Assembly (NCBI GenBank): GCA_965204375.1
Contig: OZ241986.1
Span: forward strand, 3,552,001-3,616,000
Source: Candidatus Latescibacterota bacterium
GTDB lineage: Bacteria; Latescibacterota; UBA2968
DNA length: 64,000 nucleotides
Reading direction: 5' to 3'
Below the pieces are notes generated by a model that saw only the letters and a program-made list of their open reading frames with translations, made no database searches and had not been told where the DNA came from. Position numbers and translations under genes: made by a program. Each line of letters opens with the position of its first letter. Within the stretch, counting starts at the first letter, position 1. Below, piece after piece: positions 33,087 to 61,560 of the stretch.

Positions 33087-33129
33087 AGAACTAAAAAACC
33101 ACGCCCAAAGGACGTGGTTTTTTAGTTCT
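33087..33129. terminator. Bidirectional terminator at the left edge of the accessory block
   Basis: Perfect 17-bp inverted repeat AGAACTAAAAAACCACG-N9-CGTGGTTTTTTAGTTCT. Confidence 0.85.
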
Positions 33130-33775
33130 AAGATCGCTTTTTTTGTTTTGACCTTTTAAATTTACCTCGAATATACATCACAAATTCTTTGCCTCGGTAT
33201 AGGATTAACGAAATAAACACACCCACCGCCATTATAGAATCGTACCAGGAATTGTATTCAATCGATAGCTGACAGCCGAACTCAAGGTAGATGAGATAAG
33301 CCTGCAACACAATAACAATAAGGGGAAAAATTCCTGCATAGAATATCCAAACACAATTTGAAAAAGAAGGGTAATCTGTGAGATATGATTTACCCTCTCT
33401 AGTGTATATAGAATCATCTCCAAGAAGAGAAGAAATGGTATCTTCAAGTTTATGTAGATATTTATACTGTCGATCTACCGTAATGGAATTCTGACAGTAG
33501 CGTAGCATGATAACTAGAAAAACCGTCCATGTTGCGCTTGTGATAATGGAGATAGGGAGAGCATTGAGAACATTAAGAGATTTCTTTGTGCTTGAAGTGC
33601 TTATTTCATTGAATATCCTCTGAAGATCATCCGGATACTGCACCTCCAAGAATAAAGAACCAAGGAGCGCAATAAGTACTAGAAATAGCAAGTCTCTCTG
33701 CTTCTCCCTTTCCCGAATTTGAGAGAAGCTTTCTTTGTAATGGTCGTGTAAAATATTGAGATCAGGAATATCCAT
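33128..33775 (-). CDS. 4-TM membrane protein, candidate TIR-associated effector
   Basis: Four hydrophobic segments with conserved-looking HY...R and RQY.YL..LE stretches; starts 9 bp after the TIR gene stop. Confidence 0.65.
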   Translation of the reverse strand: MDIPDLNILHDHYKESFSQIREREKQRDLLFLVLIALLGSLFLEVQYPDDLQRIFNEISTSSTKKSLNVLNALPISIITSATWTVFLVIMLRYCQNSITVDRQYKYLHKLEDTISSLLGDDSIYTREGKSYLTDYPSFSNCVWIFYAGIFPLIVIVLQAYLIYLEFGCQLSIEYNSWYDSIMAVGVFISLILYRGKEFVMYIRGKFKRSKQKKRS

Positions 33776-33784
33776 GGCGTAGCT

Positions 33785-34210
33785 TCACGCTTTCCTAATA
33801 GCCCTAAGAATAGCCTCAACCGTGAAACTCATAGCCCATTCAGCACCTTTTCCATAGAGGGGATCTGGAGACGTATTCGATGAGTCAATTTTGACAGCAA
33901 TAAACCCTTTCCTCTCTTCCGCGCTCTTATTGATTTCCCACCACTGCCAATTTCGATCACCTATCTCCTTTCTGTCACGATGATAACTATTAGCGTGTTT
34001 ACCAATGATAACAAGAGTATGGGTAGCCTCACGAATTTTACTAGTGAGGACTGCCTTAATACGGGAGATATCTTCACTTTGGATTTCCTCCGGCGTACAG
34101 TCATCAAAGTCAATATCTGAGCTCGGATTTGCAACTAGCGCATTGAGAAGATATCGATAGTGCCGATCATGATCATAGTCGAAGCTTATGAAGACTCGTT
34201 TCTTTGCCAT
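33785..34210 (-). CDS. TIR-domain protein, MTH538/DUF1863 (Thoeris ThsB-like)
   Basis: KKRVFISFDYDHD, TLVIIG, WQWWEI (catalytic Glu position), RBS AGGAGG. Confidence 0.85.
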   Translation of the reverse strand: MAKKRVFISFDYDHDRHYRYLLNALVANPSSDIDFDDCTPEEIQSEDISRIKAVLTSKIREATHTLVIIGKHANSYHRDRKEIGDRNWQWWEINKSAEERKGFIAVKIDSSNTSPDPLYGKGAEWAMSFTVEAILRAIRKA

Positions 34211-34373
34211 TCTTACCTCCTGGGGTTTTATGGTGATGCTTTGGTAATTACATCGAGAATATTGCCAAATGTTGGCGGGGCTAAGCGCATCTCTGAACCG
34301 CGAAGCGGTTGGGAGAAGGGATGAATGCTCTGAAGTTTGGGGCAGAGGTGCTGTTAGGTCCTACTATGGTTTG

Positions 34374-35385
34374 CTAAGGAGCATCGAATGTGATTCCGAT
34401 TGCCGCCGAAATTGGTCCCGAGCGTCGATTGAATATAGTAAACAGCCCCTCATCATTTCTACTTTGAGTGATATATCCTTCTCCGCACGTAACAAGAAGA
34501 TGTGCAACAAAATGTTCTAAGCGCCACCCGACTTCATGTTCTGCCGAATTGTACGGTTCTGGAAGCCCGACCTGCAGATCTTCATAACAGGGCACGCGCT
34601 GAGAATCAAAACTTTGGAGTGCTTGTCTAACCGACTCTGATCTGACTATGCGACAACCAACTGTGTTTGGGCCTCGGGGGTTCCTTGTAGTAGTCCGTGG
34701 AACATTGTAAGTAGAGGGGACGCGTAGTGGATGATAGAACATGTAGTGGACAGGAATTCCTGTGCTATTTTCATATTCCTCTATGCGTTCATACTGATCG
34801 TTACCCTTCCTTAGCGCCTCGTATCTGCTTGTTTGTTTGAATCTAAACTTCCGTGACTCAGAAACAGCGAGATAGGTTTCCTCTGATTCGAATAGACGTC
34901 CAAATCCCCAGAGATAGTCCAAAGGCTGATCCTCATCAGAGTCCACTTGTGGGGTAAAGTCGCTTGGACTGGAGAAGTGCGACCTTGCTTCGGACGAATT
35001 GCCCGGCCTGTCGAAACATCACCAGAAAGCCGATATCGGCAATTTCCCACGATCCAAAGTGCCGTCCACCCCCGAGATAATAAGTGTCAAGCCGAACTGT
35101 CCATCCGGAACCGAGCCTTACAGGAGCCGAATAATTCGAAAGATGCTCAATGAAAGTCATGTCCAGAGAAGTTTCATGAACATTCGGCATTTTAGAGATT
35201 TTTCTTGACACAGCCAGGTTGCAGGCTTCAAAAATATTCTCTAAAAATGCCAGAACATCGTCAGGCAGATAGATTTGATTCAATTTGGCTTCCTCGATTT
35301 GGGCAGAATGATCCAGTGGTGCAAACCTTACCAGAAAAGCAAATGAATCTACCCACGTTTGAAAGGGCACTGCTTCAAGAGTCAT
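34374..35385 (-). pseudogene. Frameshifted PD-(D/E)XK-like (QxK) nuclease-fold gene
   Basis: ORFs 34936-35385 and 34374-34946 overlap in different frames; EIADIG...LLQSKRLYP then continues as DSDEDQPLDY in the other frame; breakpoint near 34950. Confidence 0.6.
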
Positions 35386-36470
35386 GGAATAGGAGGAAAA
35401 GATACAGTTTTTTTTGACCTGCTCCTGTCTCGGTCTTTAGAAACGTACTTCACATTGTGATAGTCCCTGTACCAGGCGACAAAATTTGCAAGTCCTGTTT
35501 CTATGGGCGTTGTGGGATTATAGCCCACATCTCGCATGAGATCCGATACGTCTGCGGCATTATCCGTGAAGTCTCCAGGCTGTATGGGCATATCTTTTCG
35601 GATCGCTTTTTTGCCCAGCAAGTCCTCTAATAGCGAGAGGAAATACTCTAATTCTATGACGTTGTGATTGCCGATATTGTAAATCCGATAGGGGCTGGAA
35701 CTCGATCCCGGGTCGGGGCATTGTCCCGTCCATTCGGGATCTGGCTTTGCGGGGTTTGACAAGACGCGAGTTACGCCTTCGACTATGTCGCCGACATACG
35801 TAAAACTGCGACGCATCTTGCCGTGATTATAGACTTTGACAGGTCGATTTTTCAGGATGGCTCTGGTCCACAGATAGGCAACCCCATCCGGACGTCCCCA
35901 GGGTCCATAGACGGAGAAAAAGCGCAATCCCGTCGTGGGAATATCGTATAGATGGCTATACGAATGCGCCATTAGTTCATCGGCTTTTTTTGTCGCTGCG
36001 TACAGGCTGAGGGGATGATCGACATTTTGGTGGATGTTAGCGGGTGTGGTGGTGTTCAAGCCATAAACAGAACTCGACGAGGCATAGACCAGATGTTCAA
36101 TACCGCAATGGCGACATCCTTCCAGGATGTTGAGAAATCCCATGACATTGCTTTTGACGAAGGCCTGGGGATTTTTCAGGCTATAAGGCATACCCGCCTG
36201 GGCCGCGAGGTTGATGACGTGAGAAAAGTTCTCTTCGCGGAAGAGGTTTGTTATTCCCGCTTCGTCCTCGAGGTGCATGCGAACAAATTTGAATCCGCTT
36301 TCCCGTTTTAGAATGGATAGGCGGTCTTCTTTGAGTTGAGTACTGTAATAACCGTTCACATTGTCCAATCCGACTACTGAATGCCCCATTTCAAGCAGTT
36401 GTCTGGAGAGATGAAATCCAATGAATCCCGCAGCACCTGTTACGAGTACGTGTCGCGCAGCATCAGTCAT
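35382..36470 (-). CDS. NAD-dependent epimerase, UDP-glucuronate 4-epimerase-like
   Basis: VTGAAGFIG, NLAAQAG, ASSSSVYG, YAATKK, RFFSVYGPWGRPD; ATG at 36470 after AAGGAG. Confidence 0.9.
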   Translation of the reverse strand: MTDAARHVLVTGAAGFIGFHLSRQLLEMGHSVVGLDNVNGYYSTQLKEDRLSILKRESGFKFVRMHLEDEAGITNLFREENFSHVINLAAQAGMPYSLKNPQAFVKSNVMGFLNILEGCRHCGIEHLVYASSSSVYGLNTTTPANIHQNVDHPLSLYAATKKADELMAHSYSHLYDIPTTGLRFFSVYGPWGRPDGVAYLWTRAILKNRPVKVYNHGKMRRSFTYVGDIVEGVTRVLSNPAKPDPEWTGQCPDPGSSSSPYRIYNIGNHNVIELEYFLSLLEDLLGKKAIRKDMPIQPGDFTDNAADVSDLMRDVGYNPTTPIETGLANFVAWYRDYHNVKYVSKDRDRSRSKKTVSFPPIP

Positions 36471-36504
36471 GTTACAAATCTTCTCCTTATCCCTCTCATA
36501 AAAA

Positions 36505-37530
36505 CTATTCGAGCAATTGTATTGCCATCTCAATAACCGGATCTTTTTTTATAACCTCGTCAGAAGATGGCACCTCAACGTGAATATCCGGAGGAATACC
36601 AACGCCTTCATACATAACATGATCTGCCGAAAACCACTTCCCAATAGAGATTCTATATACCCAACCATTGGGAAGTTCTCGATACATGTTAGGTGCCATG
36701 CTACCTGCCGTCACGTCTCCAACTATCCTGACATAAGGAAATAGCTTCATTGCCAATACGAAATATTCCCCACCACTTATTGTTCGTCTATCCGTGAGTA
36801 CAATAATGGGTTTGGTAAATTGTTTTTCTCCTGCAGGCTCGACATATCTTTCTCGAATAGGAGTAAAATCTGAATGGCGAGGTCCATTGCGCCTTTGCAA
36901 AAGAGAGGACAGTTTCTTCTGGTCTGCAAAGCGTCCCACTACCGCTTCGACGTTGACTCCGTTTCCTCCAGAATTATTTCTTACATCTACAATGAAACCC
37001 CTGTGATCAAAAAACTCGTTTACAATGGGATCTATAGCTTCTACCCAAGCACTGCCATTCCTGCTACTGAAAGACGCAATGTGTAAATAGCCTATGGTAT
37101 CAGAGATTTGACCAGACGTAAAAAAACCGTTCCCTGTGGTTTGAAACCCAGAACGCAAGTATTTACTCTTCACAAGATCCAAATTGAGCGTCCCTTCAGG
37201 TCGTCCCTTTGCATGGCTTGAGATGAATCTCTCAAACGGCGCAATCAGATACACATGTTCATCGTCTAAATGAGCCAGCATTGAAGACATAATTTCAAAG
37301 AGAGCATTGTCGTTCGTCTGATCGGTGACTTGCGGCGCATAGATGTCATACAGGGCATTCCAATCAATGTTTTTCACCTTAAACAGGGCATAATAGCGGT
37401 CAAATTCATCCCATAAAATTTGAAAATTGTTCTGTGGGGTATTGGCGGGATCAGAACCGACTAGGATTTCGCCACAAGAAAACAATACAGGCAAAAGGAT
37501 GATACCGACTATTCGGGTTAAAAAACGCAA
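36505..37530 (-). CDS. S41 family peptidase, lipoprotein
   Basis: Lipobox VLFSC; Tricorn C1-like N-terminus; DVRNNSGG, TISGGE, IVGDVTAG, EGVGIPPD. Confidence 0.88.
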   Translation of the reverse strand: MRFLTRIVGIILLPVLFSCGEILVGSDPANTPQNNFQILWDEFDRYYALFKVKNIDWNALYDIYAPQVTDQTNDNALFEIMSSMLAHLDDEHVYLIAPFERFISSHAKGRPEGTLNLDLVKSKYLRSGFQTTGNGFFTSGQISDTIGYLHIASFSSRNGSAWVEAIDPIVNEFFDHRGFIVDVRNNSGGNGVNVEAVVGRFADQKKLSSLLQRRNGPRHSDFTPIRERYVEPAGEKQFTKPIIVLTDRRTISGGEYFVLAMKLFPYVRIVGDVTAGSMAPNMYRELPNGWVYRISIGKWFSADHVMYEGVGIPPDIHVEVPSSDEVIKKDPVIEMAIQLLE

Positions 37531-37542
37531 TGCCTATCCCTT

Positions 37543-38295
37543 TCAAAATTGGAACGAGATGCCCCCACTAAGTCCGTGAAAGACTGAAATTGTTTTTCGA
37601 GGTTGGGAATACCGCTGGTAGAGAAACCAATATGCCAGGCGCAACTTGAAATAAGCAGAAAGGGTGTGTTCATAAAGTGAGGAAAACCGTAAACGTTGAT
37701 AACCATTGAGACTGATCAACCGATTCGTTATATCTAGCGAATTTACGGCATAACTATTTCGCAATAAATAACCTAAAACTGGAATAGATAAAAAGAAAAC
37801 GACTCTTTGTTTTTCAAAGGGTAATAGCTCGCACAAAAGGGCTATATTGAGAGTCGAGACTGCTGTGCCCGTTGGTGCACCACTATAATTAGAGGAAAAA
37901 AAAGAATAATCTCTGGCAGAGACCATAATATCCCAGTTCCCCCCCAACCAAAAAGTCCTATTGGCACTCGAACCCCCTGACAATAGATGCGTATACCCGT
38001 ATTGCAATTGCCCGTAATAATGGTCAGCGAGACTCTTGCGTGCAGATGTTTTTAATTCACCTGTCATAATATGTACTTGCACCCAATGCTGATTCTTCAT
38101 CCCTTTGTAATTGTAAAAAACCCCAATTTTTTTTTGATTTCCTTCATACAGCAGCGGCGATGCCAGATCATCTCTATTTATGTAATTCGTTAGCCCTACA
38201 TCAATGCCGATTTGGTGTGTGTTTTTTCCAAATACTACCGTTGAATGCAGGACCAAAAGGATGGCGATGAGAATGGTGAATACTTTCAGGTTCAT
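37543..38295 (-). CDS. Outer-membrane beta-barrel protein
   Basis: Signal peptide, D..SPLLY.G, alternating beta strands, C-terminal ISFQF. Confidence 0.65.
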   Translation of the reverse strand: MNLKVFTILIAILLVLHSTVVFGKNTHQIGIDVGLTNYINRDDLASPLLYEGNQKKIGVFYNYKGMKNQHWVQVHIMTGELKTSARKSLADHYYGQLQYGYTHLLSGGSSANRTFWLGGNWDIMVSARDYSFFSSNYSGAPTGTAVSTLNIALLCELLPFEKQRVVFFLSIPVLGYLLRNSYAVNSLDITNRLISLNGYQRLRFSSLYEHTLSAYFKLRLAYWFLYQRYSQPRKTISVFHGLSGGISFQF

Positions 38296-39482
38296 TGCGC
38301 CAACACCCGGCGATAGATGTCAATCCAATTTTCAGTTTCTTGAGCCAGAGAAAATTGATTTGCTACTTTCTTTTTTCCTGCCCTACCAATCCTCTTTCGG
38401 AGTTCCATATCCTCAAGTAATAGTTGCAATTTTTGCGATAACATATCGGCGTCATCCGTAGGAACAAGCAGGCCATTCTTATTATCTTCAACTATATCAA
38501 CAATACCACCGACTTGAGAAGCCACAATGGGTAGTTCACAGGCCATCGCTTCTATGAGTGCATTTGGCGACCCTTCATGAAGCGAAGATAAGGCAAAAAT
38601 ATCCATCTCTTTCATCCACGCCATCACCTCCCGATGTGGAATATAACCCGTAAATACAACTTGCCGTTTGAGTCCCGAGTCACTGATTTGCTTCAACATA
38701 TCTCTTTTGTAGGATTCTTGTATAAACTTACCAACAACAAGCAAGCAAGTATCGGGATAAACTTTTACTACCCTCTCAAATGCCTGTAAGAGAATGTGAA
38801 ACCCCTTTACGGGCCGCAAAAGTCCAGCTGTCCCAATGACTGCTCCCCCTTGTGATTTCATCCGTAAAAAGGTTTCAGTAAGTATTTGCAGTCTATCGTT
38901 GTGCTCTCTTGTTATTTCTAAAAGTGCGCGTGCATCAAATATCGATGCATCAAACACATTGAGCATGACTTTTCCCTCTTTGACCCTTACCATTTGATGA
39001 ATTTTTTGCATGAGTTCAGATGATACCGACGTTACATAATCTGCTCGTTCTAATACCCACCTTAGATTTGCTGCGTGTTGGATGCTATATCGCAAAACTT
39101 CCCAATCGCTACCTCTGACACTAACAATGAAGGGGCGCTCAATTTCAGTAGCCACAATTGCACCTAAAAATCCAGGGGGCATGAGAAAAGCGGCATGAAC
39201 TAAATCAAAGTTTTGTTCTTTATGAAGGTTAAAAATATAGTCACCAAGCACTTGTAAACTATACGGATCAGCGTGGTATTTTGATAATATCGAAAATGTT
39301 CGATGTACTGTCACGTCATCTTCTATGACAGGTGATATCTTATCTCTTAATTGATAGGGACCTGGCGCGATAATATGGATATTAACACCCTGTTTTGCCA
39401 GATTTTTAGCAATCCTATAAATTGCACTTCCCACTCCTCCAGGATAAGGGGGATATTGGTACGAAATCAGACAGATATTCAT
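38292..39482 (-). CDS. Glycosyltransferase family 4
   Basis: YPPYPGGV, KG..ILL.A, HEGSPNALIEAMAC..P, VGGIVDIV. Confidence 0.9.
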   Translation of the reverse strand: MNICLISYQYPPYPGGVGSAIYRIAKNLAKQGVNIHIIAPGPYQLRDKISPVIEDDVTVHRTFSILSKYHADPYSLQVLGDYIFNLHKEQNFDLVHAAFLMPPGFLGAIVATEIERPFIVSVRGSDWEVLRYSIQHAANLRWVLERADYVTSVSSELMQKIHQMVRVKEGKVMLNVFDASIFDARALLEITREHNDRLQILTETFLRMKSQGGAVIGTAGLLRPVKGFHILLQAFERVVKVYPDTCLLVVGKFIQESYKRDMLKQISDSGLKRQVVFTGYIPHREVMAWMKEMDIFALSSLHEGSPNALIEAMACELPIVASQVGGIVDIVEDNKNGLLVPTDDADMLSQKLQLLLEDMELRKRIGRAGKKKVANQFSLAQETENWIDIYRRVLAQ

Positions 39483-39497
39483 ATTTACCTCATGATG

Positions 39498-40295
39498 TCA
39501 CGAATTGGGTTTTCGCGCTGTAATTTCTCCGAATAGAAGGGATAGATATTTGAAGGGATAATAATGATGTTTACCAAATTCGGTCAAAGCAGGTTGACCA
39601 TTGATCTTGGTAATCATATATCGGGAAGACTGGCTGGCGGTGAAACCAATTAACTTGCAAGAGCGAATTTCTTCAAAACCGGCACTATATATAGCACTTA
39701 TATGTTCTTCAAGAGTAGGTGTTTTATATGCAAAGATTCTATTAAACTCCGCCATCTCTCGTTTTTCTTCACTCGATGCTCCCTCTTTATCCAAGAAATA
39801 GACATCCTTGATATATAGCTTCCCCCTTGGACGCAGTACCCGGAAAACTTCCTCAAAAAGACGTTGGCGATCATAAGCATAGCCCGCAGATTCAAAAAAA
39901 AATACGACATCAAAGGATGAATCAAAAAATGGAAGGTCATGATAATCGCCTCTATAGACTTGAATTCTCGAGGATAGTCTCGCTTGCTGAATCAGTCTCT
40001 TAGCTATTTTTGCCTGAACTTCGGAAAGCGTAATCGCATCAATGTGAACGCCCTGAGTGTTCAAAGCAATGTCAATACTTGGTCCGCAGACACCACAACC
40101 ACAGTCTAAAATTCGGTGACCTGATTGAATGCCAGCACGAGAGGCCAGATATAGGTTGGTCGTTTTGGCTGTATTTCTTCGGGAATGTGACAATTGAATT
40201 GCCTGAAGGCTTGTACCCACATATTTCAAATAAACTTCAGTCATTGTGTCGTAATAATCGCATACTTTTTCAATGTATGCTTTGTGATCTTCCAT
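39498..40295 (-). CDS. SAM-dependent methyltransferase (sterol/tocopherol/prenyl C-MT-like)
   Basis: YYD, ILDCGCGVCGP, ITLSEVQ, GDYHDLPF.DSSFD, FES, RVLRP.GKL. Confidence 0.85.
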   Translation of the reverse strand: MEDHKAYIEKVCDYYDTMTEVYLKYVGTSLQAIQLSHSRRNTAKTTNLYLASRAGIQSGHRILDCGCGVCGPSIDIALNTQGVHIDAITLSEVQAKIAKRLIQQARLSSRIQVYRGDYHDLPFFDSSFDVVFFFESAGYAYDRQRLFEEVFRVLRPRGKLYIKDVYFLDKEGASSEEKREMAEFNRIFAYKTPTLEEHISAIYSAGFEEIRSCKLIGFTASQSSRYMITKINGQPALTEFGKHHYYPFKYLSLLFGEITARKPNS

Positions 40296-40296
40296 A

Positions 40297-41547
40297 TCAC
40301 ATCATCATCCTTGTTAATCGCTTCGCAATTCGGTATATAGCAAGGCCGAACATCAGAATGATCAGAGAGGGAAAGAAAAAGTCCGACAATGCACTCCCAA
40401 TATTTCGCCAATTCCCCACTGCAAAACTGTTTATTATCTCGCTAAAAGTCTTATACACTAAGCCAGGATAGTTTGTAACTAGATCGGGAAACAAAAAGAA
40501 AATCTTGTAAAAAAACAGAAAGAAGAAACTGGTGCTAACGATTCCATACAGCAAAAGAAACGATTTCATTTTACCACTGATGTGCAAAAAGACAGGTTCA
40601 GCGACCCCTTTTTGTTTTAAGACGAAACGTTTCGCAAAGTATTTCAGAATTTCTAAAGACCTTTTTCTGAGATTGGGTACGCCTATTATATCGGAAAAAA
40701 GCCAATACCCATCAAAGCGGAAAATTGGATTCAAGTTAAACAGTGCTGAACCGTAGTTAAGGAGAATCGCGTACAAAAATATGCTACTTGATGTCATTAG
40801 ATACAAAATGAAGAGTATGGGAACAAAAATAAGCTGAAAATATATGCCACCAAAGTCCACCATCGCACGTTGAGTTCTCGGCAGTCTCCAAGCATCCGTT
40901 ACATCAGCATAGAGAACGGGAAATCTAAAATATAATCCTATTCCTATCTCTCCAGGAAACACACCATAATAGGCACAGGCAGAAGAATGACCTAATTCAT
41001 GAAAGATCGCTAAAATACCAAAAATTATTAGCCCAAAGATAGCTTCTTGAAACGAAATATCATAAATAACAATATCTATGACTTGAAAAACAAAAAAATA
41101 AAAGTATAAAAAGAAGACGAAAGAGAAGAAAATAAAGAAGATCAGAATTCTTGGATTATAGAGAATTTTTAAAATATGACTAATGGACTGAACTACATTC
41201 TCCCGAATAATGGGATATTGAAAATACAAATATGAACTACTTTTTTGAATACTGTCATCTGAGTTTGTGTTTTCAAGGATGCCATAGGGCACAAGAAATG
41301 AATGGATAATTGCATCAATGTCTTTGGTAGAATAAGTCTTGTTTCTGACAGTAGAGTATTCGTTTGCAATTTCAGACAGTGTTTTTTTTCCATCTATCAA
41401 CTCTAAGATCTGATAGATACCTTCGCTTATTTCAAACCGTTTCGTACCTATACATAAAACATAACTCTCCTTAGCCAAAGAAGTATCGAATTTATACATC
41501 GAAACTTTAGGAACCAACTTAATCGGGTCTGGTAGGGACTCTTGCAT
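40297..41547 (-). CDS. RRE(PqqD-like)-fused M50 intramembrane zinc metallopeptidase (YydH-like RiPP peptidase)
   Basis: N-terminal wHTH (ILELIDGKKTLSEIA); HELGH; YADVTDAW; NLNPIFRFDGYW. Confidence 0.85.
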   Translation of the reverse strand: MQESLPDPIKLVPKVSMYKFDTSLAKESYVLCIGTKRFEISEGIYQILELIDGKKTLSEIANEYSTVRNKTYSTKDIDAIIHSFLVPYGILENTNSDDSIQKSSSYLYFQYPIIRENVVQSISHILKILYNPRILIFFIFFSFVFFLYFYFFVFQVIDIVIYDISFQEAIFGLIIFGILAIFHELGHSSACAYYGVFPGEIGIGLYFRFPVLYADVTDAWRLPRTQRAMVDFGGIYFQLIFVPILFILYLMTSSSIFLYAILLNYGSALFNLNPIFRFDGYWLFSDIIGVPNLRKRSLEILKYFAKRFVLKQKGVAEPVFLHISGKMKSFLLLYGIVSTSFFFLFFYKIFFLFPDLVTNYPGLVYKTFSEIINSFAVGNWRNIGSALSDFFFPSLIILMFGLAIYRIAKRLTRMMM

Positions 41548-41724
41548 GATATATTCCTATCTCAATTGTTCGCGGCGGGATCTATGGTGGCATCCAAACC
41601 TGATGCTTAGCACGGAATTTGGATGCCGCTGATCACGGAAAACAACGGGGGAAAGCACATCCTTTTTTGCTCGGCGCATTCTATGCCATCTTTAAACTAT
41701 CTACTTTGCAGGTGGTCGCTTGCG

Positions 41725-42729
41725 CTAAAATTTTTCGCTTTCTTTCAGCATCACAAGTTTACTTACCCGATCAATTTCTCGCTCCTTGGCCGCCTTCAAA
41801 TTGCGGAGCATAACTGACGTTTCAGATATGCAGGTGTCAAGAGCAATCTTCCAGTCCGTGCAAGGAATATTTTCAACATACGACAATGATTGTCGATAAT
41901 AATCTATGGAATAATCGAGAATTTCTTCTGCCAGCCCTGTAAAATAAATCATGCGTGCCAGTTCTTCCAGAGTAATAGATTCTAATTTTTTTTTCAGTCC
42001 CTTTCTTTCAATGATTTGAGACAAAAGATACGAATATCTTCCAGCCAAAAAATCTATGCGCCAATCTTTAAGATCATCACGAAACTGTAGTCCTGTAAAA
42101 AAAGCATCTAAGGATTTTTCAAAGGGCCGGATCAGATCGGGGGAATGAGATAAACAGGCTAGAGCAGTTGTCGCCATTTGGGCGGTAGAGGCTTTATCTG
42201 AGGCAATTTTAAACGCCTCATCCAAAGAATAAGAAGTGGGATTATTCCATTTTGTTCTTTCTTCTAATGTTGCAGTAATAACGCGCCGTTGGTACTTTTT
42301 GGCAAAGACCCAAAAATCCGAACTTTTTGAAAATAAATCATTTAGCAACACATACGCATGATCCCTTAAAAGTGAAACTAAAAAATAGGCATCTACTTTA
42401 AGTGCTTCTTGCTCATCAAAAATATCGTCCATATACATTGTATAGAGATATATTGATCTATTAGCAAAATATAATTTCTTATGCGTATCTTCATCTAAAA
42501 CAAATGCCTGTGAGAACAGATATGTAAAGGAAGTATATATATCATTACCCAAAAATATGGGATCTTGTAAAGCCGTCTCCAAGTTATACTCTTCACAAAT
42601 CTGCGATATGAATTGATAAAATTCTACTTCGGATTTTTTAATAGATATATCGTCCTGAAGGCCAAAATTCAATGAAGAAATTTCATCCTCCAGAGACTCA
42701 AATGGGTCTAATGGTAAATGCTTATCCAT
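41725..42729 (-). CDS. Class I isoprenoid-synthase-fold enzyme (ComQ-like prenyltransferase or terpene synthase)
   Basis: Two Asp-rich motifs, YMDDIFDE and QFRDDLKDW, with DKAS before the second; no RRG loop after the first motif. Confidence 0.75.
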   Translation of the reverse strand: MDKHLPLDPFESLEDEISSLNFGLQDDISIKKSEVEFYQFISQICEEYNLETALQDPIFLGNDIYTSFTYLFSQAFVLDEDTHKKLYFANRSIYLYTMYMDDIFDEQEALKVDAYFLVSLLRDHAYVLLNDLFSKSSDFWVFAKKYQRRVITATLEERTKWNNPTSYSLDEAFKIASDKASTAQMATTALACLSHSPDLIRPFEKSLDAFFTGLQFRDDLKDWRIDFLAGRYSYLLSQIIERKGLKKKLESITLEELARMIYFTGLAEEILDYSIDYYRQSLSYVENIPCTDWKIALDTCISETSVMLRNLKAAKEREIDRVSKLVMLKESEKF

Positions 42730-42804
42730 ATAAAGGTCCTTGGTGAAAACTCCGAAAGAGATGGGTTTGCTTGCTGCATCGGGTAGTCAAGCCATAGTTA
42801 TTCT

Positions 42805-45228
42805 TCAATTGAGCCGTGCAAAACTAGCCCGTATTGAAAACCCATCCTCGTCCAGCCTTTTGGTCGCGTCAATGCGTATCAAGTGATATATGTTTAAAGA
42901 GATACCGGCTTCGTGATAGAATTTGTCGAGGACATGGGGATCATATTGCAGGGTGTCTAATTTCTCTTTTGATATCCAAGTTCGCCCCGATCCACCATAT
43001 AGTATGACCTCAAAGCCATTTCTAGCCAAATATTCCATATTGAAAATTTCAAAGGGTGCAGAGCGAAAATTGTGCTGCCAGTAAACACCGAAATATTTTT
43101 CGCCTTCATAAGGATAGCCACCTAAATGCTTGAAAGTGCCAAATGAGGTGAAGGGACGCCAAACATCCAAAACGCCGAAACGCTGTACGGGTAAATCACC
43201 CGTAAAAGTTCCAGCCGTAACGCGAACATCTAAAACATTGGGTACTGCACGACGCTTCAAGAATGTTTCAATACGCCAATCAAAACCCAAATCGTATTTG
43301 ACATAAGAGAAATCGCTTTTTAAGAGATCTAAAGAACCCCATTCAACCCAAGCAGTTGCACACTTATAACGAGACTCTCGAAAGCGAAATCTGAAATCAA
43401 TATAACGAAGCCGACCTTCATCAATGGGTGGATTTATGCGTTGGCTTATATCTCTTCCCAGAATGTTGAAATCCGTCTGTTTGCTCAACAAAGAGTGCTT
43501 TTCATCATGGAATCCCAAAGACAATCTCCCTTTTCCCCGCGAAAATCGCTGTGTAATATCAAAATTCGCAGATTTGCGCCAATAATAATCGTAGTAATCG
43601 TCCAATCCCAGTAGGGTAAAGCCACTTTGCAAAGCAACGTCGGTCAAATTGCCAAGACCGTAATTGAGATTGCCAGAACCGTAATGATAAGAATGATACC
43701 GTTCGGCGATAGCGGTTTGATGATAAAATCGTAGTTCACCGACATTCCTTGTTCCCCTACCCCATCCATACCGGAATCTAATAAGATAAGGCCTGTAGGA
43801 GAGGCCCTGAGAATATTCTCCTCCCAAGTCCAATCCATATCGTCTTCCCGTAGCTTGATTGAGCAGTGCTGAGTAAATGATCATATTCACTCTCGCCATG
43901 CTTACACGATTATAGCCTCCCGGATTAATACGCCACCCAAAAATAGGTCTCCATCCCTTGCGTCTCTGAGATTTTTTTGCAGATTTTAACGACTCTAAGC
44001 TCATTTGAGTCCAACGCGCTATCGGACCAGAAGGCGGGAATGCCTTGCGAATAGTCAATTTTTCATCAATTTCACGATATGCTTTTTTTTCCCTTGCGCT
44101 ATTAGGAAATCTTGTGAACAAGCTGTCCCTCCGAATCGAAACAGAATCAACTGAAACAATCTGGTTTTGCTCGAAAATTGACGTGGAAAGTTTTTTGTTT
44201 ACCTCGAAATTGTTTAACTGTGTAATGACCGTTATTTTGCCTTTGGGAATCTTTAGTACCCCAGGTATTGATACCCTCCCTTCAATCTGCAGGTGAAAAT
44301 CAATGGGCAACCACACATCGTCGCCAAATCTCTGAAACTGTTGGAGAAAGGAGACTTGTACCCCCCTGACAAAGGAAACGAACGAAAATACAATCGGACT
44401 AGGGTTTACTTCTGCGCGTAAGATTACAAAGGCTTCATCTAAAACAAATACCCGGCCCATAAAAGCTGGTTGGAGTTTGGTCTTAGGACGCAGGGATATT
44501 TCATAGATAGTCTGTCCACCATTGTATTGTTGCTCACGCAACTCAAAACGGTAAAAATCGAGTGCGTCTGGATGTGTAGGACCAATAATACGGTTTCCCG
44601 CGAAAACAATCTCATCATCATAAATGTTGGGCAGCGATTTGAGAGCTTTAAAAACTGAATATGTATATAACCATTCTGGCACGTTTTTGGTATGGCGTTT
44701 AGACACAATAAACTCGCGAAAACCCCGATCGCGATCCCAATGAATTTCAGACACCAGATCTCCTATCCCAACAATACGCGCTTCATTTTCAACATTTTCA
44801 GCGACTTGCCGCGTATATGCCATCGCCTTAAAACGCTTCAGCTTTGGACGCCATTGACCCTTTTTCTCAATGACTTTTTGCATAATTGCCGATCCCATAT
44901 CAGACGTTACAACAATTTCCTCAAACGGGTATGCCACAGGCTGCATTTTGATGGACAGAACCTCAGCAGCCTCATTCACGAAAACCTTCTGATCAGCATA
45001 TCCAATATGCGTAATAAGCAACGTGACAGGTAATCCTGAGACCTCGAGCACAAATACACCGTCTTCATTAGATATCGTTGCAAAAAATGTATCCTTAGCT
45101 CTAATATTGGCAGTCGCTAATGGCTGCCTGCTATCCGCATCGACAATTTTACCGGAGATCATAACTTGACCATTTGCACTTTCACAAAATACAAGGAAGA
45201 TATACGCCACTATAATGAAAATCCTCAT
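42805..45228 (-). CDS. Outer-membrane protein, carboxypeptidase-regulatory-like domain plus DUF5686-like barrel
   Basis: Signal peptide; ISGKIVDADSRQPLATANI, SNEDGVF, HIGY; IIGP...A...YRF; aromatic-rich beta C-terminus. Confidence 0.75.
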   Translation of the reverse strand: MRIFIIVAYIFLVFCESANGQVMISGKIVDADSRQPLATANIRAKDTFFATISNEDGVFVLEVSGLPVTLLITHIGYADQKVFVNEAAEVLSIKMQPVAYPFEEIVVTSDMGSAIMQKVIEKKGQWRPKLKRFKAMAYTRQVAENVENEARIVGIGDLVSEIHWDRDRGFREFIVSKRHTKNVPEWLYTYSVFKALKSLPNIYDDEIVFAGNRIIGPTHPDALDFYRFELREQQYNGGQTIYEISLRPKTKLQPAFMGRVFVLDEAFVILRAEVNPSPIVFSFVSFVRGVQVSFLQQFQRFGDDVWLPIDFHLQIEGRVSIPGVLKIPKGKITVITQLNNFEVNKKLSTSIFEQNQIVSVDSVSIRRDSLFTRFPNSAREKKAYREIDEKLTIRKAFPPSGPIARWTQMSLESLKSAKKSQRRKGWRPIFGWRINPGGYNRVSMARVNMIIYSALLNQATGRRYGLDLGGEYSQGLSYRPYLIRFRYGWGRGTRNVGELRFYHQTAIAERYHSYHYGSGNLNYGLGNLTDVALQSGFTLLGLDDYYDYYWRKSANFDITQRFSRGKGRLSLGFHDEKHSLLSKQTDFNILGRDISQRINPPIDEGRLRYIDFRFRFRESRYKCATAWVEWGSLDLLKSDFSYVKYDLGFDWRIETFLKRRAVPNVLDVRVTAGTFTGDLPVQRFGVLDVWRPFTSFGTFKHLGGYPYEGEKYFGVYWQHNFRSAPFEIFNMEYLARNGFEVILYGGSGRTWISKEKLDTLQYDPHVLDKFYHEAGISLNIYHLIRIDATKRLDEDGFSIRASFARLN

Positions 45229-45280
45229 AGCATCCCCAATATCTCTGATAGAATCTCTAAATTCTGTCTCTCTTGCAATG

Positions 45281-45313
45281 AAAACTACCTGCTTGCAATA
45301 GGCAAGCAGGTAG
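45281..45313 (-). terminator. Intrinsic terminator downstream of precursor A
   Basis: Minus strand reads CTACCTGCTTGC-ctatt-GCAAGCAGGTAG-TTTT. Confidence 0.75.
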
Positions 45314-45449
45314 ACAGGCCAATACTGTAATTAAAGTTTTTTTTACTCTCAGAACCGAAGTCGTCAACTTCACTAACTATGCACTTTGAAACGAGGCAGT
45401 GGATTGCTGGTTATTTGCCTTCTACAAAAGCATTCTCAGGTACTATTAC

Positions 45450-45701
45450 CTAAGAGCCATCATCATCACTACCATCATCACTACCATCATCACTACCATC
45501 ATCATCATTATTATTATTTTCTATACCACAACCATTGTCAGCATCATCGCATCCGATGTTGATGTAGCATGCTGTAAAAGGAGACATTTCGAGTCTTTCT
45601 TCAAGAACATCAACGGCCAGATCCTCATACAGTTCAGGATATGAGATAATATGTGCTTTGAGATCGGTTTCCGAAGAAATTTGGGAAGAAAATTTATCCA
45701 T
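45450..45701 (-). CDS. Putative RiPP precursor peptide A (83 aa)
   Basis: RBS AAGGAGGG; leader ending VLEERLEM; core SPFTACYINIGCDDADNGCGIE; acidic tail (DDGS)n; directly downstream of rSAM/SPASM. Confidence 0.8.
   Translation of the reverse strand: MDKFSSQISSETDLKAHIISYPELYEDLAVDVLEERLEMSPFTACYINIGCDDADNGCGIENNNNDDDGSDDGSDDGSDDDGS
45461..45496. repeat. 3 x 12-bp tandem repeat encoding DDGS
   Basis: CATCATCACTAC x3, followed by CAT/TAT triplet runs. Confidence 0.9.
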
Positions 45702-45803
45702 GATACTACCCTCCTTAATTAAAGGTTACTTGATTAAAGACTTATATAGATGACATCATTGTTGATACTGGCATCAAAACATAGTATCTCCTTTCTTGAA
45801 AAT

Positions 45804-47561
45804 TTATACACTTTGTAAGGTCTGTTGTTTACACTCCTCAAATATCTCAGGCACAATCGTATGAAAAACTCTGGGATACTCATCGCAATAGGATGTCTTG
45901 ATATTGCCGTTATTCTTTACATAAGCATGTGCAGCACACCCACCGCCGCAAAAGAAAGCATATTTGCACTTACTACAAGATGGTACATTGGAAATATTCC
46001 GATCATACCACTCTGATAAACGTTTATCATTGAATTCAACTTTATCTACAAAACTTCCAACTTTATACCGCTCTACCCCCACTAAGTCCCAGCACGTATA
46101 GAGATCTCCATAAGGATCAAAGATCAACATATTGGTCTGTGCACCACAGAAAACAGGCTTGAAACTCAACAGTCCCTTGCCCTCAAAAGCCTTCTTGAAG
46201 GTCTGTCTAATGCCATAGTCCTGGCAAGAAATTTGATGCATCATGTCGGGGTTTTCTTTTGCAAACTGATAGTATTTGCGCGTGAATTCTCTTCTTGGTA
46301 TCACTGAAATTTCGCCGTTTTGAGGCTGGTTTGATTCCATCTCTTGAGATATTTTTTCCTGGTTAATTGGATGTGTACCGTTTTGGTAGTTCAAGAAAAT
46401 TTCTTCCTCTCGTTCTACATCTATGTATTGCTCTTCATCTATGAGCATTTCAGAAGCGGTGTGCAACTGTGCCTGGAGTTCAAGTTTCTCAGAAGTTTTC
46501 TGTTTTTTACTCTCACTGAAGGATATGACAGAGGCAACAGACTCGGCGGATCCGAAATCTGCTGCTGGTGCTTCAATTGAAATAAGAGGGGCTGTTTGAC
46601 CATAATTGCCTGGCGTCTTTTTACCGGACATTGTAGCACTACACGACATGCCCTCTTCAACCTGATGTACCAAAGCAGAATAGGCTGAAAATTTTGGATA
46701 CTCTGTAAATCCTCTATCTTTGAACAAATCAAATAATGCAGGCAAAATATCCACATTGTCGTAATCTGTATTGATCCGCATTGAAATCTGCACATCAAGC
46801 GACAGGGCAAGTGCCACATTTTTTATTATGGCGTCAAAGCTATCTCTCGCACGATAATGTGGACGCTTGCGATTGTGATTTTCTTCTTCGCCATCTAAGG
46901 TGATCTGAAGACGCCCGATTTTTTTCGGACTTAATAGGTCTGTGAAATGGTGGAGGTCATATCCATTTGTAATGGCTTTAAAAGTGTAACCGCGTTTCAA
47001 ACCTTCATCTACGATATACTTCACGATCTCTTTATTTTTGGCCAATAAAGGCTCTCCACCATATAGAGTAATGTTTTTGCTATGCATGGCTTTATTGGGC
47101 TGGATTTCACACATTGCTTGGTATGCACGGTCAACCATTTCTTTTGTAAATACCTGCTTTGACCAACCCCTTCCATAATCTGAAATGCCATTTTCAAAAC
47201 AATAGGGACAGCGGAAGTTACAATCATAGGCCACCAAGAAAAGGAAAGATGCGGCACTGTGGCTTGCGGTATGATGAAGAAAGTTCGCCATGCTATGCAC
47301 GTATTCTCGTTCTTCCACAGGTGAACGGCTAGTCATATAGCCCCGCTTCATCAATGTATGGATCGTCTCTTTTGAACAAGGCAGTTGATCAAACATATCT
47401 TCAGAGATAACAATCCGACTCTTTATCATCCGAGCAACTTCTTTATTCACTCTATCTATTGCGCCCGTATATCCGTGAACGAGCAGAGAGTGATTTGGAT
47501 CTTCAGGCAAATTGACACAAATTGTATAGGATGATACGCGATATAACTCTGAACTTGCCAT
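45804..47561 (-). CDS. Radical SAM/SPASM peptide maturase A
   Basis: CNFRCPYC; YGGEPLL; SPASM CGA...CW...CSKCKYAFFCGGGC...C; N-terminal RRE-like region. Confidence 0.9.
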   Translation of the reverse strand: MASSELYRVSSYTICVNLPEDPNHSLLVHGYTGAIDRVNKEVARMIKSRIVISEDMFDQLPCSKETIHTLMKRGYMTSRSPVEEREYVHSMANFLHHTASHSAASFLFLVAYDCNFRCPYCFENGISDYGRGWSKQVFTKEMVDRAYQAMCEIQPNKAMHSKNITLYGGEPLLAKNKEIVKYIVDEGLKRGYTFKAITNGYDLHHFTDLLSPKKIGRLQITLDGEEENHNRKRPHYRARDSFDAIIKNVALALSLDVQISMRINTDYDNVDILPALFDLFKDRGFTEYPKFSAYSALVHQVEEGMSCSATMSGKKTPGNYGQTAPLISIEAPAADFGSAESVASVISFSESKKQKTSEKLELQAQLHTASEMLIDEEQYIDVEREEEIFLNYQNGTHPINQEKISQEMESNQPQNGEISVIPRREFTRKYYQFAKENPDMMHQISCQDYGIRQTFKKAFEGKGLLSFKPVFCGAQTNMLIFDPYGDLYTCWDLVGVERYKVGSFVDKVEFNDKRLSEWYDRNISNVPSCSKCKYAFFCGGGCAAHAYVKNNGNIKTSYCDEYPRVFHTIVPEIFEECKQQTLQSV

Positions 47562-47811
47562 TAAAAGACCTCCCTTGGTGTATGGGCATTACACTTGTAT
47601 TTATATGCTTATCTTACCTAATCGCCTATCACTATGAAAAATGGATGGCGTAGGATGCTTGTTCTGCACTACCACTAAAATGGAGCAACTCCAAATGATT
47701 CCACACATAGAAGAGTTAGAGGGGAGTTGACAACCCATCGATCAAAAGATATCTTAAACCATTCAAGCTCACATTCCCAAATGCTTGAGCTTTGAACTGC
47801 TGTTGCAGTCT

Positions 47812-47854
47812 GCCGCCGACACTCGACTTGCCAGAGTCTGTCGGCGGCTTTTTT
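47812..47854 (+). terminator. Intrinsic terminator oriented on the + strand
   Basis: GCCGCCGACA-N17-TGTCGGCGGC-TTTTTT. Confidence 0.7.
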
Positions 47855-47908
47855 GTGATGTGAATGATAATATGATTGCCCCTATAGTTTCAAGCCCAAA
47901 AGTTTGTC

Positions 47909-48616
47909 CTAATCTGCAAAATTTGTTCCAGTTGCTACTTTTTTTCGATATATTGTCGGACTAACTCCATACTTCTCTTTGAAAATCTTGCTAAAAGTCG
48001 ATAAAGATCCAAATCCACACAGGTAAGCAATTTCCGAAAGGGTATATGATGTGTTCTTCAACGCTTCCTCAGCCTTTGTTAGGCGTACATTCCGAAGGCA
48101 CATCCTGAATGGCATTCCCAGGTGCTTTTTAAATAATTTATGTCCATAGCTTTCCGAGAACCTGAAATGACGCATGATATCTTCAAATCTCAGCTTTGGA
48201 TTGCTGTAATTCGCCTCCAAAAATGATTCCAACCAACTCTTCCAAATATCTTGTAGAGGCATATATTTTTTGACCTTCGCCAAAAACACATCTTTCTTGA
48301 TGGGTTTATCAAATACACTCGCTGCACCAGCCTTGATCGCTTCCGCGCCCAATTCCATTTTTCCCAAACTTGTCATGATCAGTATAGTTGTCTGAATTTT
48401 TTCCGCCTTCACACGCTTCAATAGTGTCATACCATCCATACCCTTTATCTTCATCTCAACGACAGCAAGGCCGATCTCCTCTTTTCTTAAAATTTCAAGG
48501 CCTTCTATCCCGTTTCTCGCCGCGAATACTTCATAAAGTTCATCTCTCAAGAATCCTACAAGTTCTGATATTACAAATGGTTCATCATCTACAATCAAAA
48601 TTTGCTGCTTGTCCAT
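47909..48616 (-). CDS. Response regulator, REC plus AraC HTH (atypical receiver)
   Basis: ILIVDDE, VVEMKIKGMDG, KP; AraC motif EIAYLCGF...FSKIFKEKYGVSP..YR. Confidence 0.85.
   Translation of the reverse strand: MDKQQILIVDDEPFVISELVGFLRDELYEVFAARNGIEGLEILRKEEIGLAVVEMKIKGMDGMTLLKRVKAEKIQTTILIMTSLGKMELGAEAIKAGAASVFDKPIKKDVFLAKVKKYMPLQDIWKSWLESFLEANYSNPKLRFEDIMRHFRFSESYGHKLFKKHLGMPFRMCLRNVRLTKAEEALKNTSYTLSEIAYLCGFGSLSTFSKIFKEKYGVSPTIYRKKVATGTNFAD
47915..47931 (-). promoter_or_regulatory. Candidate sigma54 -24/-12 promoter facing RiPP locus A
   Basis: Minus strand CTGGAACAAATTTTGCA (GG-N10-GC), inside the last codons of the regulator. Confidence 0.4.
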
Positions 48617-53847: not shown

Positions 53848-54732
53848 TCAAAAAAACGTATTGACGATTATCATATAACAGGCATTCTGTTTTCTCTTCA
53901 GAGTGTCTGGTAGGAGTGTAGCATTTCGGCTCGTAAACTCCTGGATGCGCTCAGGCTTCACCCCATAGATATTGCGGAGGGTATTAAACAGGCCGATCAG
54001 ATCTGTTTCACTGTTAGTAGCTTTAGCCAACGCGCTCAAATACACATCATCAATATGCGATAATGCCTTTGCTATTCGGGAGCGCGTTTCATTGACAGAC
54101 TGAACATCCGAAAGTCTGGCAGGCGCATCCCAACACGGTGTCACGGATTTGATCTTACGCAACACGGCCAGATGGTGGTCCTCGCGGATAATCGACACTG
54201 TAAAACTACTGGGATAGACGGACAGCCAATTCTCGACAATTTGCTTCTCATAAGACCTTCTGAAATCGTCCAGAATGACCAGACCACCAATCTTGATCTG
54301 ATCATAAACCTGGTAAAGGCAGGCCTCCCGACCTCGCAAGGTATAGACAGGCGGACCATCAATAATCACGCAATCCATCTCTTCCTGCCAAAACATCCCA
54401 TCTTCATAAGTCAAAAATTCCGCATCTCCATAAGATTCAAGCGTAATCGGACGATATTTGATCGATAGATTGCGCTTATCCAAAAACTTCTGTATCAAAT
54501 CCGTAGTTTCTCTAAAATTTCGACAATCACCTTCCACAGACAAAACTTGCGCTTCAGGAAACGCCATCGCCAGACGGATAGAACTCGGACCACTTCCAAA
54601 TTCGAGAATTCTTTCTACTGTGGACATCTGAAGAAGCAAGGTCTCTATTCTCCCGAACACTGTCTCACCAATGCTCCAGCCTGTGTCCAGATTAAGCTGA
54701 TCAGGCATTTCAAAATCTGAAATTTTATGCAT
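53848..54732 (-). CDS. Class I SAM-dependent methyltransferase (Methyltransf_24-like)
   Basis: ILEFGSG.SS, IIDGPP, GGLVILDD. Confidence 0.8.
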   Translation of the reverse strand: MHKISDFEMPDQLNLDTGWSIGETVFGRIETLLLQMSTVERILEFGSGPSSIRLAMAFPEAQVLSVEGDCRNFRETTDLIQKFLDKRNLSIKYRPITLESYGDAEFLTYEDGMFWQEEMDCVIIDGPPVYTLRGREACLYQVYDQIKIGGLVILDDFRRSYEKQIVENWLSVYPSSFTVSIIREDHHLAVLRKIKSVTPCWDAPARLSDVQSVNETRSRIAKALSHIDDVYLSALAKATNSETDLIGLFNTLRNIYGVKPERIQEFTSRNATLLPDTLKRKQNACYMIIVNTFF

Positions 54733-54747
54733 TTCTCACTTCTCTGC

Positions 54748-56178: not shown

Positions 56179-56202
56179 GCCTTGTACTCCTGAGAATCGA
56201 AA

Positions 56203-56391
56203 TCATCTATCCTGATCATCAGCCTGATCAAGATCGTCCCAATCGTCATCATCGGGAAAGGGCAGGGGGGGAACAGCTATCCAACCGGGCTCACAGATCA
56301 TTTCAAAACTATCCGCAGTCTGATACATAAGAATGCCACCTTCTTGACCTATCGTTCCATTGATCAAAGTCAACTTGCGTCGCGTTGCCAT
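56203..56391 (-). CDS. Putative RiPP precursor peptide B (62 aa)
   Basis: RBS GGGAGGG then ATG at 56391; MATRRKLTLING leader; FEMICEPGW; Pro-rich then Asp-rich tail; ends 24 bp before rSAM B. Confidence 0.78.
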   Translation of the reverse strand: MATRRKLTLINGTIGQEGGILMYQTADSFEMICEPGWIAVPPLPFPDDDDWDDLDQADDQDR

Positions 56392-56446
56392 ATTACCCTC
56401 CCTCAATACAAAAATCTAAAATGTGGTCACGATCTGTCCTTAATAC

Positions 56447-61506: not shown

Positions 61507-61519
61507 AAATGCAACCACC

Positions 61520-61560
61520 GTCAGAATCAGGATGTGCAGGATTAAAGGATGAACAGGATA
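61520..61560. repeat. Short AGGAT nonamer repeat element
   Basis: caggatgtg-caggatta-aaggatgaa-caggat. Confidence 0.45.

Follow-up and report, generated by a model that had tools for sequence, protein, structure and literature searches.

The window analysed here, that is the whole stretch of 64,000 nucleotides from a Candidatus Latescibacterota bacterium (contig OZ241986.1, positions 3,552,001 to 3,616,000), carries on its minus strand a putative gene cluster for a peptide synthesized on ribosomes and modified post-translationally (RiPP). One gene of this cluster, 41725-42729, codes for a 334-aa protein that resembles the trans-isoprenyl diphosphate synthases (hereafter trans-IDS) and that is probably a cyclase-less peptide prenyltransferase built on the trans-IDS fold, acting on a Tyr or a Cys of the RiPP precursor. 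The initial annotation had already proposed a peptide prenyltransferase, and this is the best-supported reading given the fold, the motifs, the gene fusions and the conserved neighbourhood, whereas the use of a prenyl donor, the peptide as acceptor, the acceptor residue, the chain length and the order of the steps are what we infer from it. The gene and its two motifs, which fall on the first and second Asp-rich motifs of trans-IDS (FARM and SARM), are as follows.

41725..42729, minus strand: 334-aa candidate prenyltransferase, trans-IDS-like and standalone, lacking a cyclase domain (family profile, predicted model, fold match)
42415..42429, minus strand: motif 1, DDIFD, D101-D105, on the FARM (profile-profile alignment)
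42052..42078, minus strand: motif 2, DDLKDWRID, D218-D226, on the SARM (profile-profile alignment)

The neighbouring genes lie on the minus strand in the order of the lines below, with the prenyltransferase candidate between the CarbopepD_reg/DUF5686 gene and the HExxH protease gene. Related loci from other genomes, or from elsewhere in the same genome, are designated L followed by a number.

47909..48616, minus strand: response regulator with an AraC helix-turn-helix domain, upstream of the operon (Pfam)
45804..47561, minus strand: radical S-adenosylmethionine (rSAM)/SPASM peptide maturase, 585 aa (Pfam Radical_SAM; NCBIfam SPASM domain above cut-off)
45450..45701, minus strand: precursor peptide, 83 aa (open reading frame (ORF), AAGGAGG upstream, conserved leader)
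42805..45228, minus strand: CarbopepD_reg + DUF5686 protein, 807 aa, between the precursor and prenyltransferase genes (Pfam)
40297..41547, minus strand: HExxH intramembrane metalloprotease, its PqqD-like N-terminus (RiPP recognition element type) weakly matched (NCBIfam)
39498..40295, minus strand: class I S-adenosylmethionine-dependent methyltransferase (Pfam)
38292..39482, minus strand: GT4 glycosyltransferase (Pfam; kept in the three closest clusters)
36505..38295, minus strand: a 250-aa protein of no recognised family and an S41 peptidase (Pfam; both kept in L011)

The curated families nearest to the rSAM/SPASM enzyme are CefB, geopeptide and PapB, all matched far below their cut-offs (CefB, 134.9 bits for a cut-off of 600). 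The HExxH protease matched NCBIfam daptide_HExxH with 120 bits (cut-off 300) and PqqD over residues 17-65 (E 3e-4). A weaker counterpart of the response regulator occurs in L011 and L042, and CarbopepD_reg proteins of 762-768 aa hold the same position in L013 and L014 as the 807-aa protein here, which possibly plays a role in outer-membrane export. The G+C content of the cluster (window 36000-48000) is 0.38-0.44, compared with 0.47-0.54 in the flanks, and the enzyme family is patchy in its own phylum, with members in 4 of 168 genomes, the window's genome counted, and in 2 of 20 other genomes of the same genus. The low G+C and the patchy occurrence are consistent with an accessory, maybe transferred island.

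As read from the 334-aa protein, DDIFD corresponds to residues 101-105 (window 42429-42415) and DDLKD to residues 218-222 (42078-42064), and the pattern DD..D has no further match in a protein whose Asp content is 8.7%. A word-indexed protein search returned 22 proteins at 72-100% identity, the query itself included, and the reading frame is free of stops in the 21 others (72-82% identity). One paralogue, 76% identical, is encoded in the same genome, and motif 2 reads NDLKN in the closest paralogues. No match to the protein was found at E<=0.01 in Pfam and NCBIfam, PF00348 included, nor at E<=10 in a sequence search of the PDB.

With close homologues alone, AlphaFold2 gave a predicted local distance difference test score (pLDDT) of 52.5, and this model was set aside; with a 47-row diverse alignment, the 334-aa protein was modelled with a pLDDT of 91 and a predicted template modelling score of 0.88. 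The best structural match of this model in VIA-align was the geranylgeranyl diphosphate (GGPP) synthase 3n3d (Z 22.7, root-mean-square deviation (rmsd) 2.8 Å over 279 residues), and Foldseek placed heptaprenyl and farnesyl diphosphate synthases on top (E about 1e-5), with a probability of 1.00 to many IDS. Two non-elongating prenyltransferases with this fold, Ord1 (structure 9v4g; Z 19.1, rmsd 3.5 Å, 269 residues) and MoeN5 (Z 18.7), were also matched, and the family profile found trans-IDS chains of the PDB (3oyr, E 1e-8; 4jxy, E 4e-6; 4lob, E 7e-6). As modelled, the protein has an all-alpha class I isoprenoid synthase fold of the trans-IDS superfamily, its two Asp-rich motifs, which bind metal in this fold, lying on helices that face each other.

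For the active site, we compared the family by profile-profile alignment with a canonical trans-IDS from the same genome. D101 and D105 align on FARM positions 1 and 5, the QxxDDxxD segment of the family on the SARM, and the GK at residues 178-179 on the Lys of the 'KT' motif; the two Asp-rich motifs named in the initial annotation are therefore the FARM and the SARM. The RRG loop, which that annotation had described as missing, is indeed missing because the IDS segment '...ETRRGDDVLHLQWGN' that contains it sits in an 11-residue gap of the family. A second gap lies opposite the post-SARM GK loop of the IDS, and the N-terminal IDS motif GRRFRP, which binds isopentenyl diphosphate (IPP), has no counterpart, since the alignment begins after it and no basic residue is conserved at that position in the family alignment. 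The IPP-binding elements of canonical IDS are an N-terminal basic motif of the GGKRxR type and the RRG loop after the FARM; the RRG-loop Arg and the Lys of the post-SARM loop also assist binding of the allylic diphosphate. Judged by this alignment, the allylic diphosphate/Mg site is largely retained and the IPP (elongation) site lost. A divergent chain-elongating trans-IDS that makes the prenyl donor for another enzyme is thus most improbable: even if the nearest folds are those of chain-elongating synthases, neither the basic IPP motif nor either of the two loops (RRG and post-SARM) is present in the protein, which also has no PF00348 match (the family relative P0023 reaches 23.3 bits against this model, the cut-off being 27), and related clusters hold a separate canonical synthase in addition.

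An exhaustive profile search recovered 828 representatives at E<=1e-3, 306 of them at E<=1e-10 and 21 at E<=1e-30, a family that has no Pfam or NCBIfam model and whose signature is DxxxD ... FW ... GK ... QxxDDxxDW[RK]xD. The matching clusters in the ESM Atlas are all annotated 'hypothetical protein', and in one of them PF00348 is found on 47% of the members. Conservation was counted on representatives of two kinds, standalone (44, of 270-380 aa) and fused (89, of >=560 aa), the close homologues P0002-P0022 being left out. D101 is Asp in 44/44 standalone and 86/89 fused representatives and D105 in 44/44 and 88/89; motif 1 does not keep its second Asp, so that across the family it is DxxxD. W140 and D226 are kept in all representatives of both types, D218, D219 and D222 in 44/44 and 87-88/89, and W223 in 43/44 and 86/89. 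K179 is Lys in 37/44 and 79/89, and Q215, three residues ahead of the SARM, is Gln in 39/44 and 78/89.

About two thirds of the classed relatives (89/133) are thus of fused length (at least 560 aa). In a Pfam scan of 13 long representatives, SQHop_cyclase_C, an alpha/alpha toroid, followed the prenyltransferase-like domain in 10, and the remaining 3 (883-943 aa) gave faint squalene-cyclase matches only. The fused C domains have QW-like repeats and a PPDxD motif in common, and D.D[DE] is matched in 29 of 74. In one relative, P0155 (1117 aa), a complete rSAM/SPASM peptide maturase is joined in a single chain to the toroid and the prenyltransferase-like domain. The 334-aa protein itself is a single domain in the predicted model and does not have the two-domain prenyltransferase-cyclase build. 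In a FastTree phylogeny of 155 rows, which covered the family and six canonical IDS and has many weakly supported branches as well as some long ones, the six IDS formed a separate clade with a support of 100. Standalone and fused forms are intermixed in this tree, the starred branches requiring at least 13-14 changes, and the 334-aa protein falls in a 5-row, all-standalone clade within an 18-row starred set (12 standalone, 6 fused).

These fusions also bear on another possibility, namely a peptide-independent class I terpene synthase, or another prenyl diphosphate-processing enzyme, with a free isoprenoid product. Class II cyclase-like fusions are typical of bifunctional terpene synthases too, and a site that keeps the metal-binding, carbocation-generating elements and has lost the IPP site would suit such an enzyme, as would the weak Terpene_syn_C_2 matches given by two relatives in the Pfam scan. 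NSE/DTE motifs together with DDxxD are marks of class I terpene cyclases, and the i, i+4, i+8 spacing of D218/D222/D226 resembles the NSE/DTE triad. However, terpene cyclase structures match the model much more weakly (Z 12-14, against 22.7 for IDS), and the family is tied to rSAM maturases, leader-bearing precursors and leader proteases, one member even being fused to a maturase. We consider a terpene synthase distinctly improbable.

We then studied the genomic context of the family. A scan restricted to one genome per species returned 31 loci, whose ORFs were searched with the window proteins at E<=1e-5. The closest related locus belongs to a Candidatus Latescibacterota metagenome-assembled genome (81% identity). 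Orthologues of the window rSAM enzyme were found in 13/31 loci, those of the HExxH protease in 15/31 and both in 11/31, the orthologue-bearing loci coming from Saprospiraceae, Ignavibacteria, Anaerolineae, Clostridia, Thermodesulfobacteriota and others. When only loci with a tblastn E<=1e-10 are taken, 17 of 23 have an rSAM and/or an HExxH orthologue. Two Actinomycetota loci (L019 and L025) have a B12-binding rSAM enzyme adjoining the family gene; in L019 and L020 a family form of 504-512 aa is followed by a toroid-fused second copy, and in L025 there is only a form of about 505 aa, followed by a SnoaL-like 732-aa protein. The loci of the Thermodesulfobacteriota type (L021, L024, L027, L028, L029, L031 and L032) each have a tandem pair of large copies, one of about 640 aa and one of 870-1000 aa, whose extra parts are without Pfam match, together with two to six different leader-bearing precursors (5-6 in several of them).

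A canonical PF00348 synthase is encoded within 6 of the 35 loci scanned (L021, L022, L024, L028, L029 and L031), and in 5 of the 7 Thermodesulfobacteriota-type loci (L021, L024, L028, L029 and L031) a canonical polyprenyl synthase lies upstream. Searched for their chain length, these cluster-encoded synthases gave NCBIfam matches below cut-off only. Such synthases, and the cyclase-like partner domains of the relatives, speak for prenyl chemistry rather than for a protein without prenyl transfer, be it a maturase-complex scaffold or chaperone, or an enzyme with other Asp/Mg chemistry on the peptide. A functional diphosphate/Mg site is likewise suggested by the invariant Asp clusters and by the Lys and the Gln, the latter standing ahead of the SARM. 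All the same, canonical IDS have two diphosphate-binding elements that are deleted here, and the window cluster is without a prenyl synthase, so that a role of this kind keeps some weight, even if we regard it as unlikely.

Looking at the small ORFs beside the rSAM genes, we found a common leader ending, ...(L/I)(S/P)(I/L)(E/D)ELExRLE(M/L), followed by a Cys-rich core. In the window precursor the leader comprises residues 1-39 and ends with LEERLEM (45701-45585); the 44-aa core begins with SPFTACYINIGC... and runs into an acidic DDGS-repeat tail (45584-45453). This unusual tail, NNNNDDDGSDDGSDDGSDDDGS (45453-45510, minus strand), is not shared by the precursors of related clusters; the leader is kept in them, with tblastn E values of 1e-15 to 1e-18. 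As stated in the initial annotation, Trp is absent from the core. With four Cys, a single Tyr and a single Phe, the core includes the CYIN motif, which recurs across phyla. We tallied 46 cores, i.e. 44 distinct ones in 16 loci plus those of the window and L003, which the pattern missed and which were added by hand. All 46 contain Tyr or Trp (22 with Trp, 24 without), and in 35 of them a Tyr or Trp stands within 2 residues of the first Cys, as in CYINSC, CYIDIC, CYTDFC, CLYYLC, C(V/I)W(F/A)xC, DCWVHDNC and GWCGSHC.

If the enzyme were a Trp prenyltransferase, its real substrate would have to be a Trp peptide encoded elsewhere, and the initial annotation had indeed offered a Trp-containing 'precursor B' as substrate. 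Since the identity of this peptide was ambiguous, we weighed the ORFs 47601-47738 and 56203-56406 and the L003 precursor. The family leader is carried by one window ORF only, 45450-45701. The small, Trp-containing ORFs 47601-47738 (45 aa) and 41557-41679 were rejected as extra precursors, being unconserved in L003, L011 and L042 (best E 0.05). The 67-aa ORF 56203-56406 (minus strand) has two Trp and an acidic tail; it lacks the family leader and lies directly upstream of a different rSAM gene, of the SCIFF/PapB-like type (54748-56178). A Trp-containing window peptide as the substrate is therefore not supported. This ORF is part of a second RiPP-like unit (53848-56406, minus strand), which includes the rSAM/SPASM gene (best NCBIfam match 263.8 bits, cut-off 425) and a 294-aa protein of no family, and which is adjoined by a DDE transposase (52380-53738).

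The only Trp-containing precursor with the family leader that we found in this genome is that of L003, a paralogous cluster about 850 kb away (G000:C1:4434000-4453900). Its precursor (L003:1988-2236, 82 aa) has the family leader and a CxC/DEFE-repeat core with two Trp, which would suit a Trp-specific enzyme, all the more so as a 2026 review presents every characterised trans-IDS-like peptide prenyltransferase as acting on Trp (PMC13290415). Yet L003 comes with a set of its own: an rSAM enzyme, an enzyme copy (76% identical to the window enzyme, with NDLKN as motif 2) and an HExxH protease, next to an ABC transporter pair, an 864-aa glycosyltransferase and a GT4 enzyme. Transposase fragments flank the L003 cluster. 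Furthermore, Trp-free cores occur across phyla in five of the ten loci with one precursor type (window, L011, L012, L013 and L014), where the enzymes are all standalone; the five with Trp cores are L003, L042, L015, L016 and L017, and in L016 and L017 the cores, with one Trp each, stand beside single fused enzymes. A Trp peptide as the substrate of the window enzyme is thus quite unlikely.

The four Latescibacterota copies pair DDL(K/R)D with Tyr-only cores (window and L011) and NDLKN with Trp cores (L003 and L042). As this is two against two among close kin, the change from Asp to Asn in the SARM is only a lead, and we rejected it as a specificity mark because it tracks Trp cores only within these four copies, which are not independent. 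The disordered N-terminus of the enzyme (DEISSLNFG...DDISI) was likewise rejected as a leader mimic. A hidden Markov model of the leader, for which 58 segments were used (including one spurious ORF of the window), did not match the N-terminus of the window enzyme or of its close homologues, its best match anywhere having an E of 0.44.

The enzyme and the window precursor, each with its alignment, were submitted to complex prediction in three runs with controls. The median interface score (ipSAE) was 0.58 (runs of 0.38, 0.58 and 0.67), the best control being 0.00; contact agreement was at least 28% and the pLDDT of the partner at least 48. In the benchmark, 116 of 157 solved complexes and 2 of 215 mismatched pairs passed the mark set for this score; only 18 of the 157 solved complexes, but both passing mismatches, did so at 0.60 or under. 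The verdict for this pair is 'weak support', and no interface is reported.

Several points weigh against a peptide prenyltransferase with a Tyr or Cys acceptor, beginning with this outcome of the complex prediction and with the Trp specificity of the characterised enzymes, the window core being Trp-free. The RRG-loop Arg and the post-SARM Lys are absent, so the donor could differ from that of canonical IDS, and the genome's two prenyl diphosphate synthases are encoded elsewhere than in the cluster. Six of the 23 loci considered above, five Actinomycetota loci and a 1.9-kb contig, have neither the rSAM/SPASM nor the HExxH orthologue. Across phyla, a comparison of the Tyr-only-core with the Trp-core enzymes (5 versus 5) revealed no residues that separate the two groups. 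Finally, no known product can be linked by sequence to any family member, and the family was compared with its apparent closest counterpart, ChrPC, by description and architecture.

Taking these points into account, we still favour the prenyltransferase and propose the following scheme. The rSAM/SPASM enzyme would cross-link the 83-aa precursor at its cysteines, and the 334-aa enzyme would prenylate the leader-bearing, probably cross-linked peptide, which might also be methylated and glycosylated; the HExxH membrane protease would release the peptide from its leader. In the enzyme, Mg2+ held by D101/D105 and D218/D219/D222 could bind, with K179, an allylic prenyl diphosphate, which would be ionised and its prenyl cation handed to a nucleophile of the peptide. 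Given a Trp-free core and an enzyme devoid of a cyclase domain, the prenyl group is likely to be linear and to sit on a residue other than Trp; its site is most likely the Tyr of CY(I/T)(N/D), else a Cys thiol. The expected product would thus carry a linear prenyl on Tyr46 (core Tyr7) or on Cys.

It is possible, if on balance doubtful, that the enzyme is the first peptide prenyltransferase of the isoprenoid-synthase fold with a non-Trp acceptor (Tyr or Cys), and that it marks an uncatalogued, phylum-spanning RiPP class with repeated gain and loss of the cyclase. Our full-text literature search found no account of the family with an rSAM/SPASM-HExxH system, although the primary ChrPC paper, a 2026 Natural Product Reports review and their supplements may cover such clusters, and no description of a standalone member with a Trp-free substrate. 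If true, this class would consist of the ...EELExRLEM leader, a Cys-rich core, the rSAM/SPASM enzyme, the prenyltransferase with or without cyclase and the HExxH protease. Prenyl lipidation alters the membrane affinity and bioactivity of peptides, and a leader-guided prenylation of Tyr or Cys would extend the peptide lipidation toolbox. The family amounts to a concrete set of gene clusters (828 representatives) with thioether-type rSAM enzymes, prenyl synthases and multiple precursors, and the paired paralogous clusters of this genome, with Tyr-only and Trp cores, respectively, constitute a natural specificity experiment.

Outside the cluster, a same-strand run of genes (1811-26939, plus strand) codes for 4 sulfatases, 6 PhyH-family dioxygenases, an arylsulfotransferase, an alpha-L-fucosidase, GH32 and GHL6 proteins and a DUF6785/6784 membrane protein, and looks like a sulfated-polysaccharide utilisation island. 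Possible defence genes are located at 33128-35385, 27004-28269 and 204-1430 (all minus strand); they include a ThsB-like TIR protein (33785-34210) with three small family-less neighbours, as well as a Schlafen/AlbA_2-HATPase_c_4 protein and an AAA_21 ATPase. At 56704-61617 (minus strand), a single protein of 1637 aa joins Ser/Thr kinase, AAA_16, TPR, GAF, sigma-54 activator and HTH_8 domains.

When compared with known systems, the window protein is closest in structure to the canonical trans-IDS (PF00348), with which it shares the aligned FARM, SARM and 'KT' positions; unlike them, it has no Pfam match, basic IPP motif, RRG loop or post-SARM loop, and it falls outside their clade. As for the partner rSAM enzyme, ranthipeptide/SCIFF-type systems (PapB, CefB) are the nearest, and their cores too are Cys- and Asp-rich, but the window rSAM matches them far below the curated cut-offs and, to our knowledge, these rSAM/SPASM systems work without a prenyltransferase. 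PalQ and Ord1 are Trp prenyltransferases on the trans-IDS fold that also have a Gln three residues before the SARM (here Q215); for PalQ the Trp has to be terminal, and Ord1 acts on free Trp, whereas the window peptide offers neither.

The review cited above names as trans-IDS-like peptide prenyltransferases ComQ, PalQ and the ChrPC P domain (PMC13290415). The initial annotation had called the window enzyme ComQ-like. This holds for the isoprenoid-synthase fold, the apparent lack of elongation and the probable ribosomal peptide substrate, but is imprecise as to the motifs: ComQ (IPR033965), of the isoprene synthase superfamily, has kept the FARM and lost the SARM, having a pseudo-SARM instead (PMC10853753). 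In the present family it is the SARM that is invariant, the FARM being reduced to DxxxD. ComQ, which prenylates a Trp of Bacillus ComX and which we compared by description only, also acts on another type of precursor and has no rSAM or protease partners, the window neighbourhood being of the rSAM/SPASM and HExxH type. The nearer precedent is apparently the ChrPC P domain (Hubrich et al., Chem 2024), a trans-IDS-like fold that prenylates a ribosomal peptide; it is reported to modify an internal Trp with C10-C20 donors, and the C domain then cyclises the prenyl group (PMC13290415). The window protein differs from ChrPC by the lack of a cyclase domain, by its Trp-free core and by its context, an rSAM/SPASM-HExxH system with a Cys-rich peptide, but most of its relatives share the two-domain build of a prenyltransferase-like domain and a class II cyclase-like toroid. 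Altogether, the window protein appears to be a cyclase-less member of a family in whose fused forms the published prenyltransferase-cyclase build is found again.

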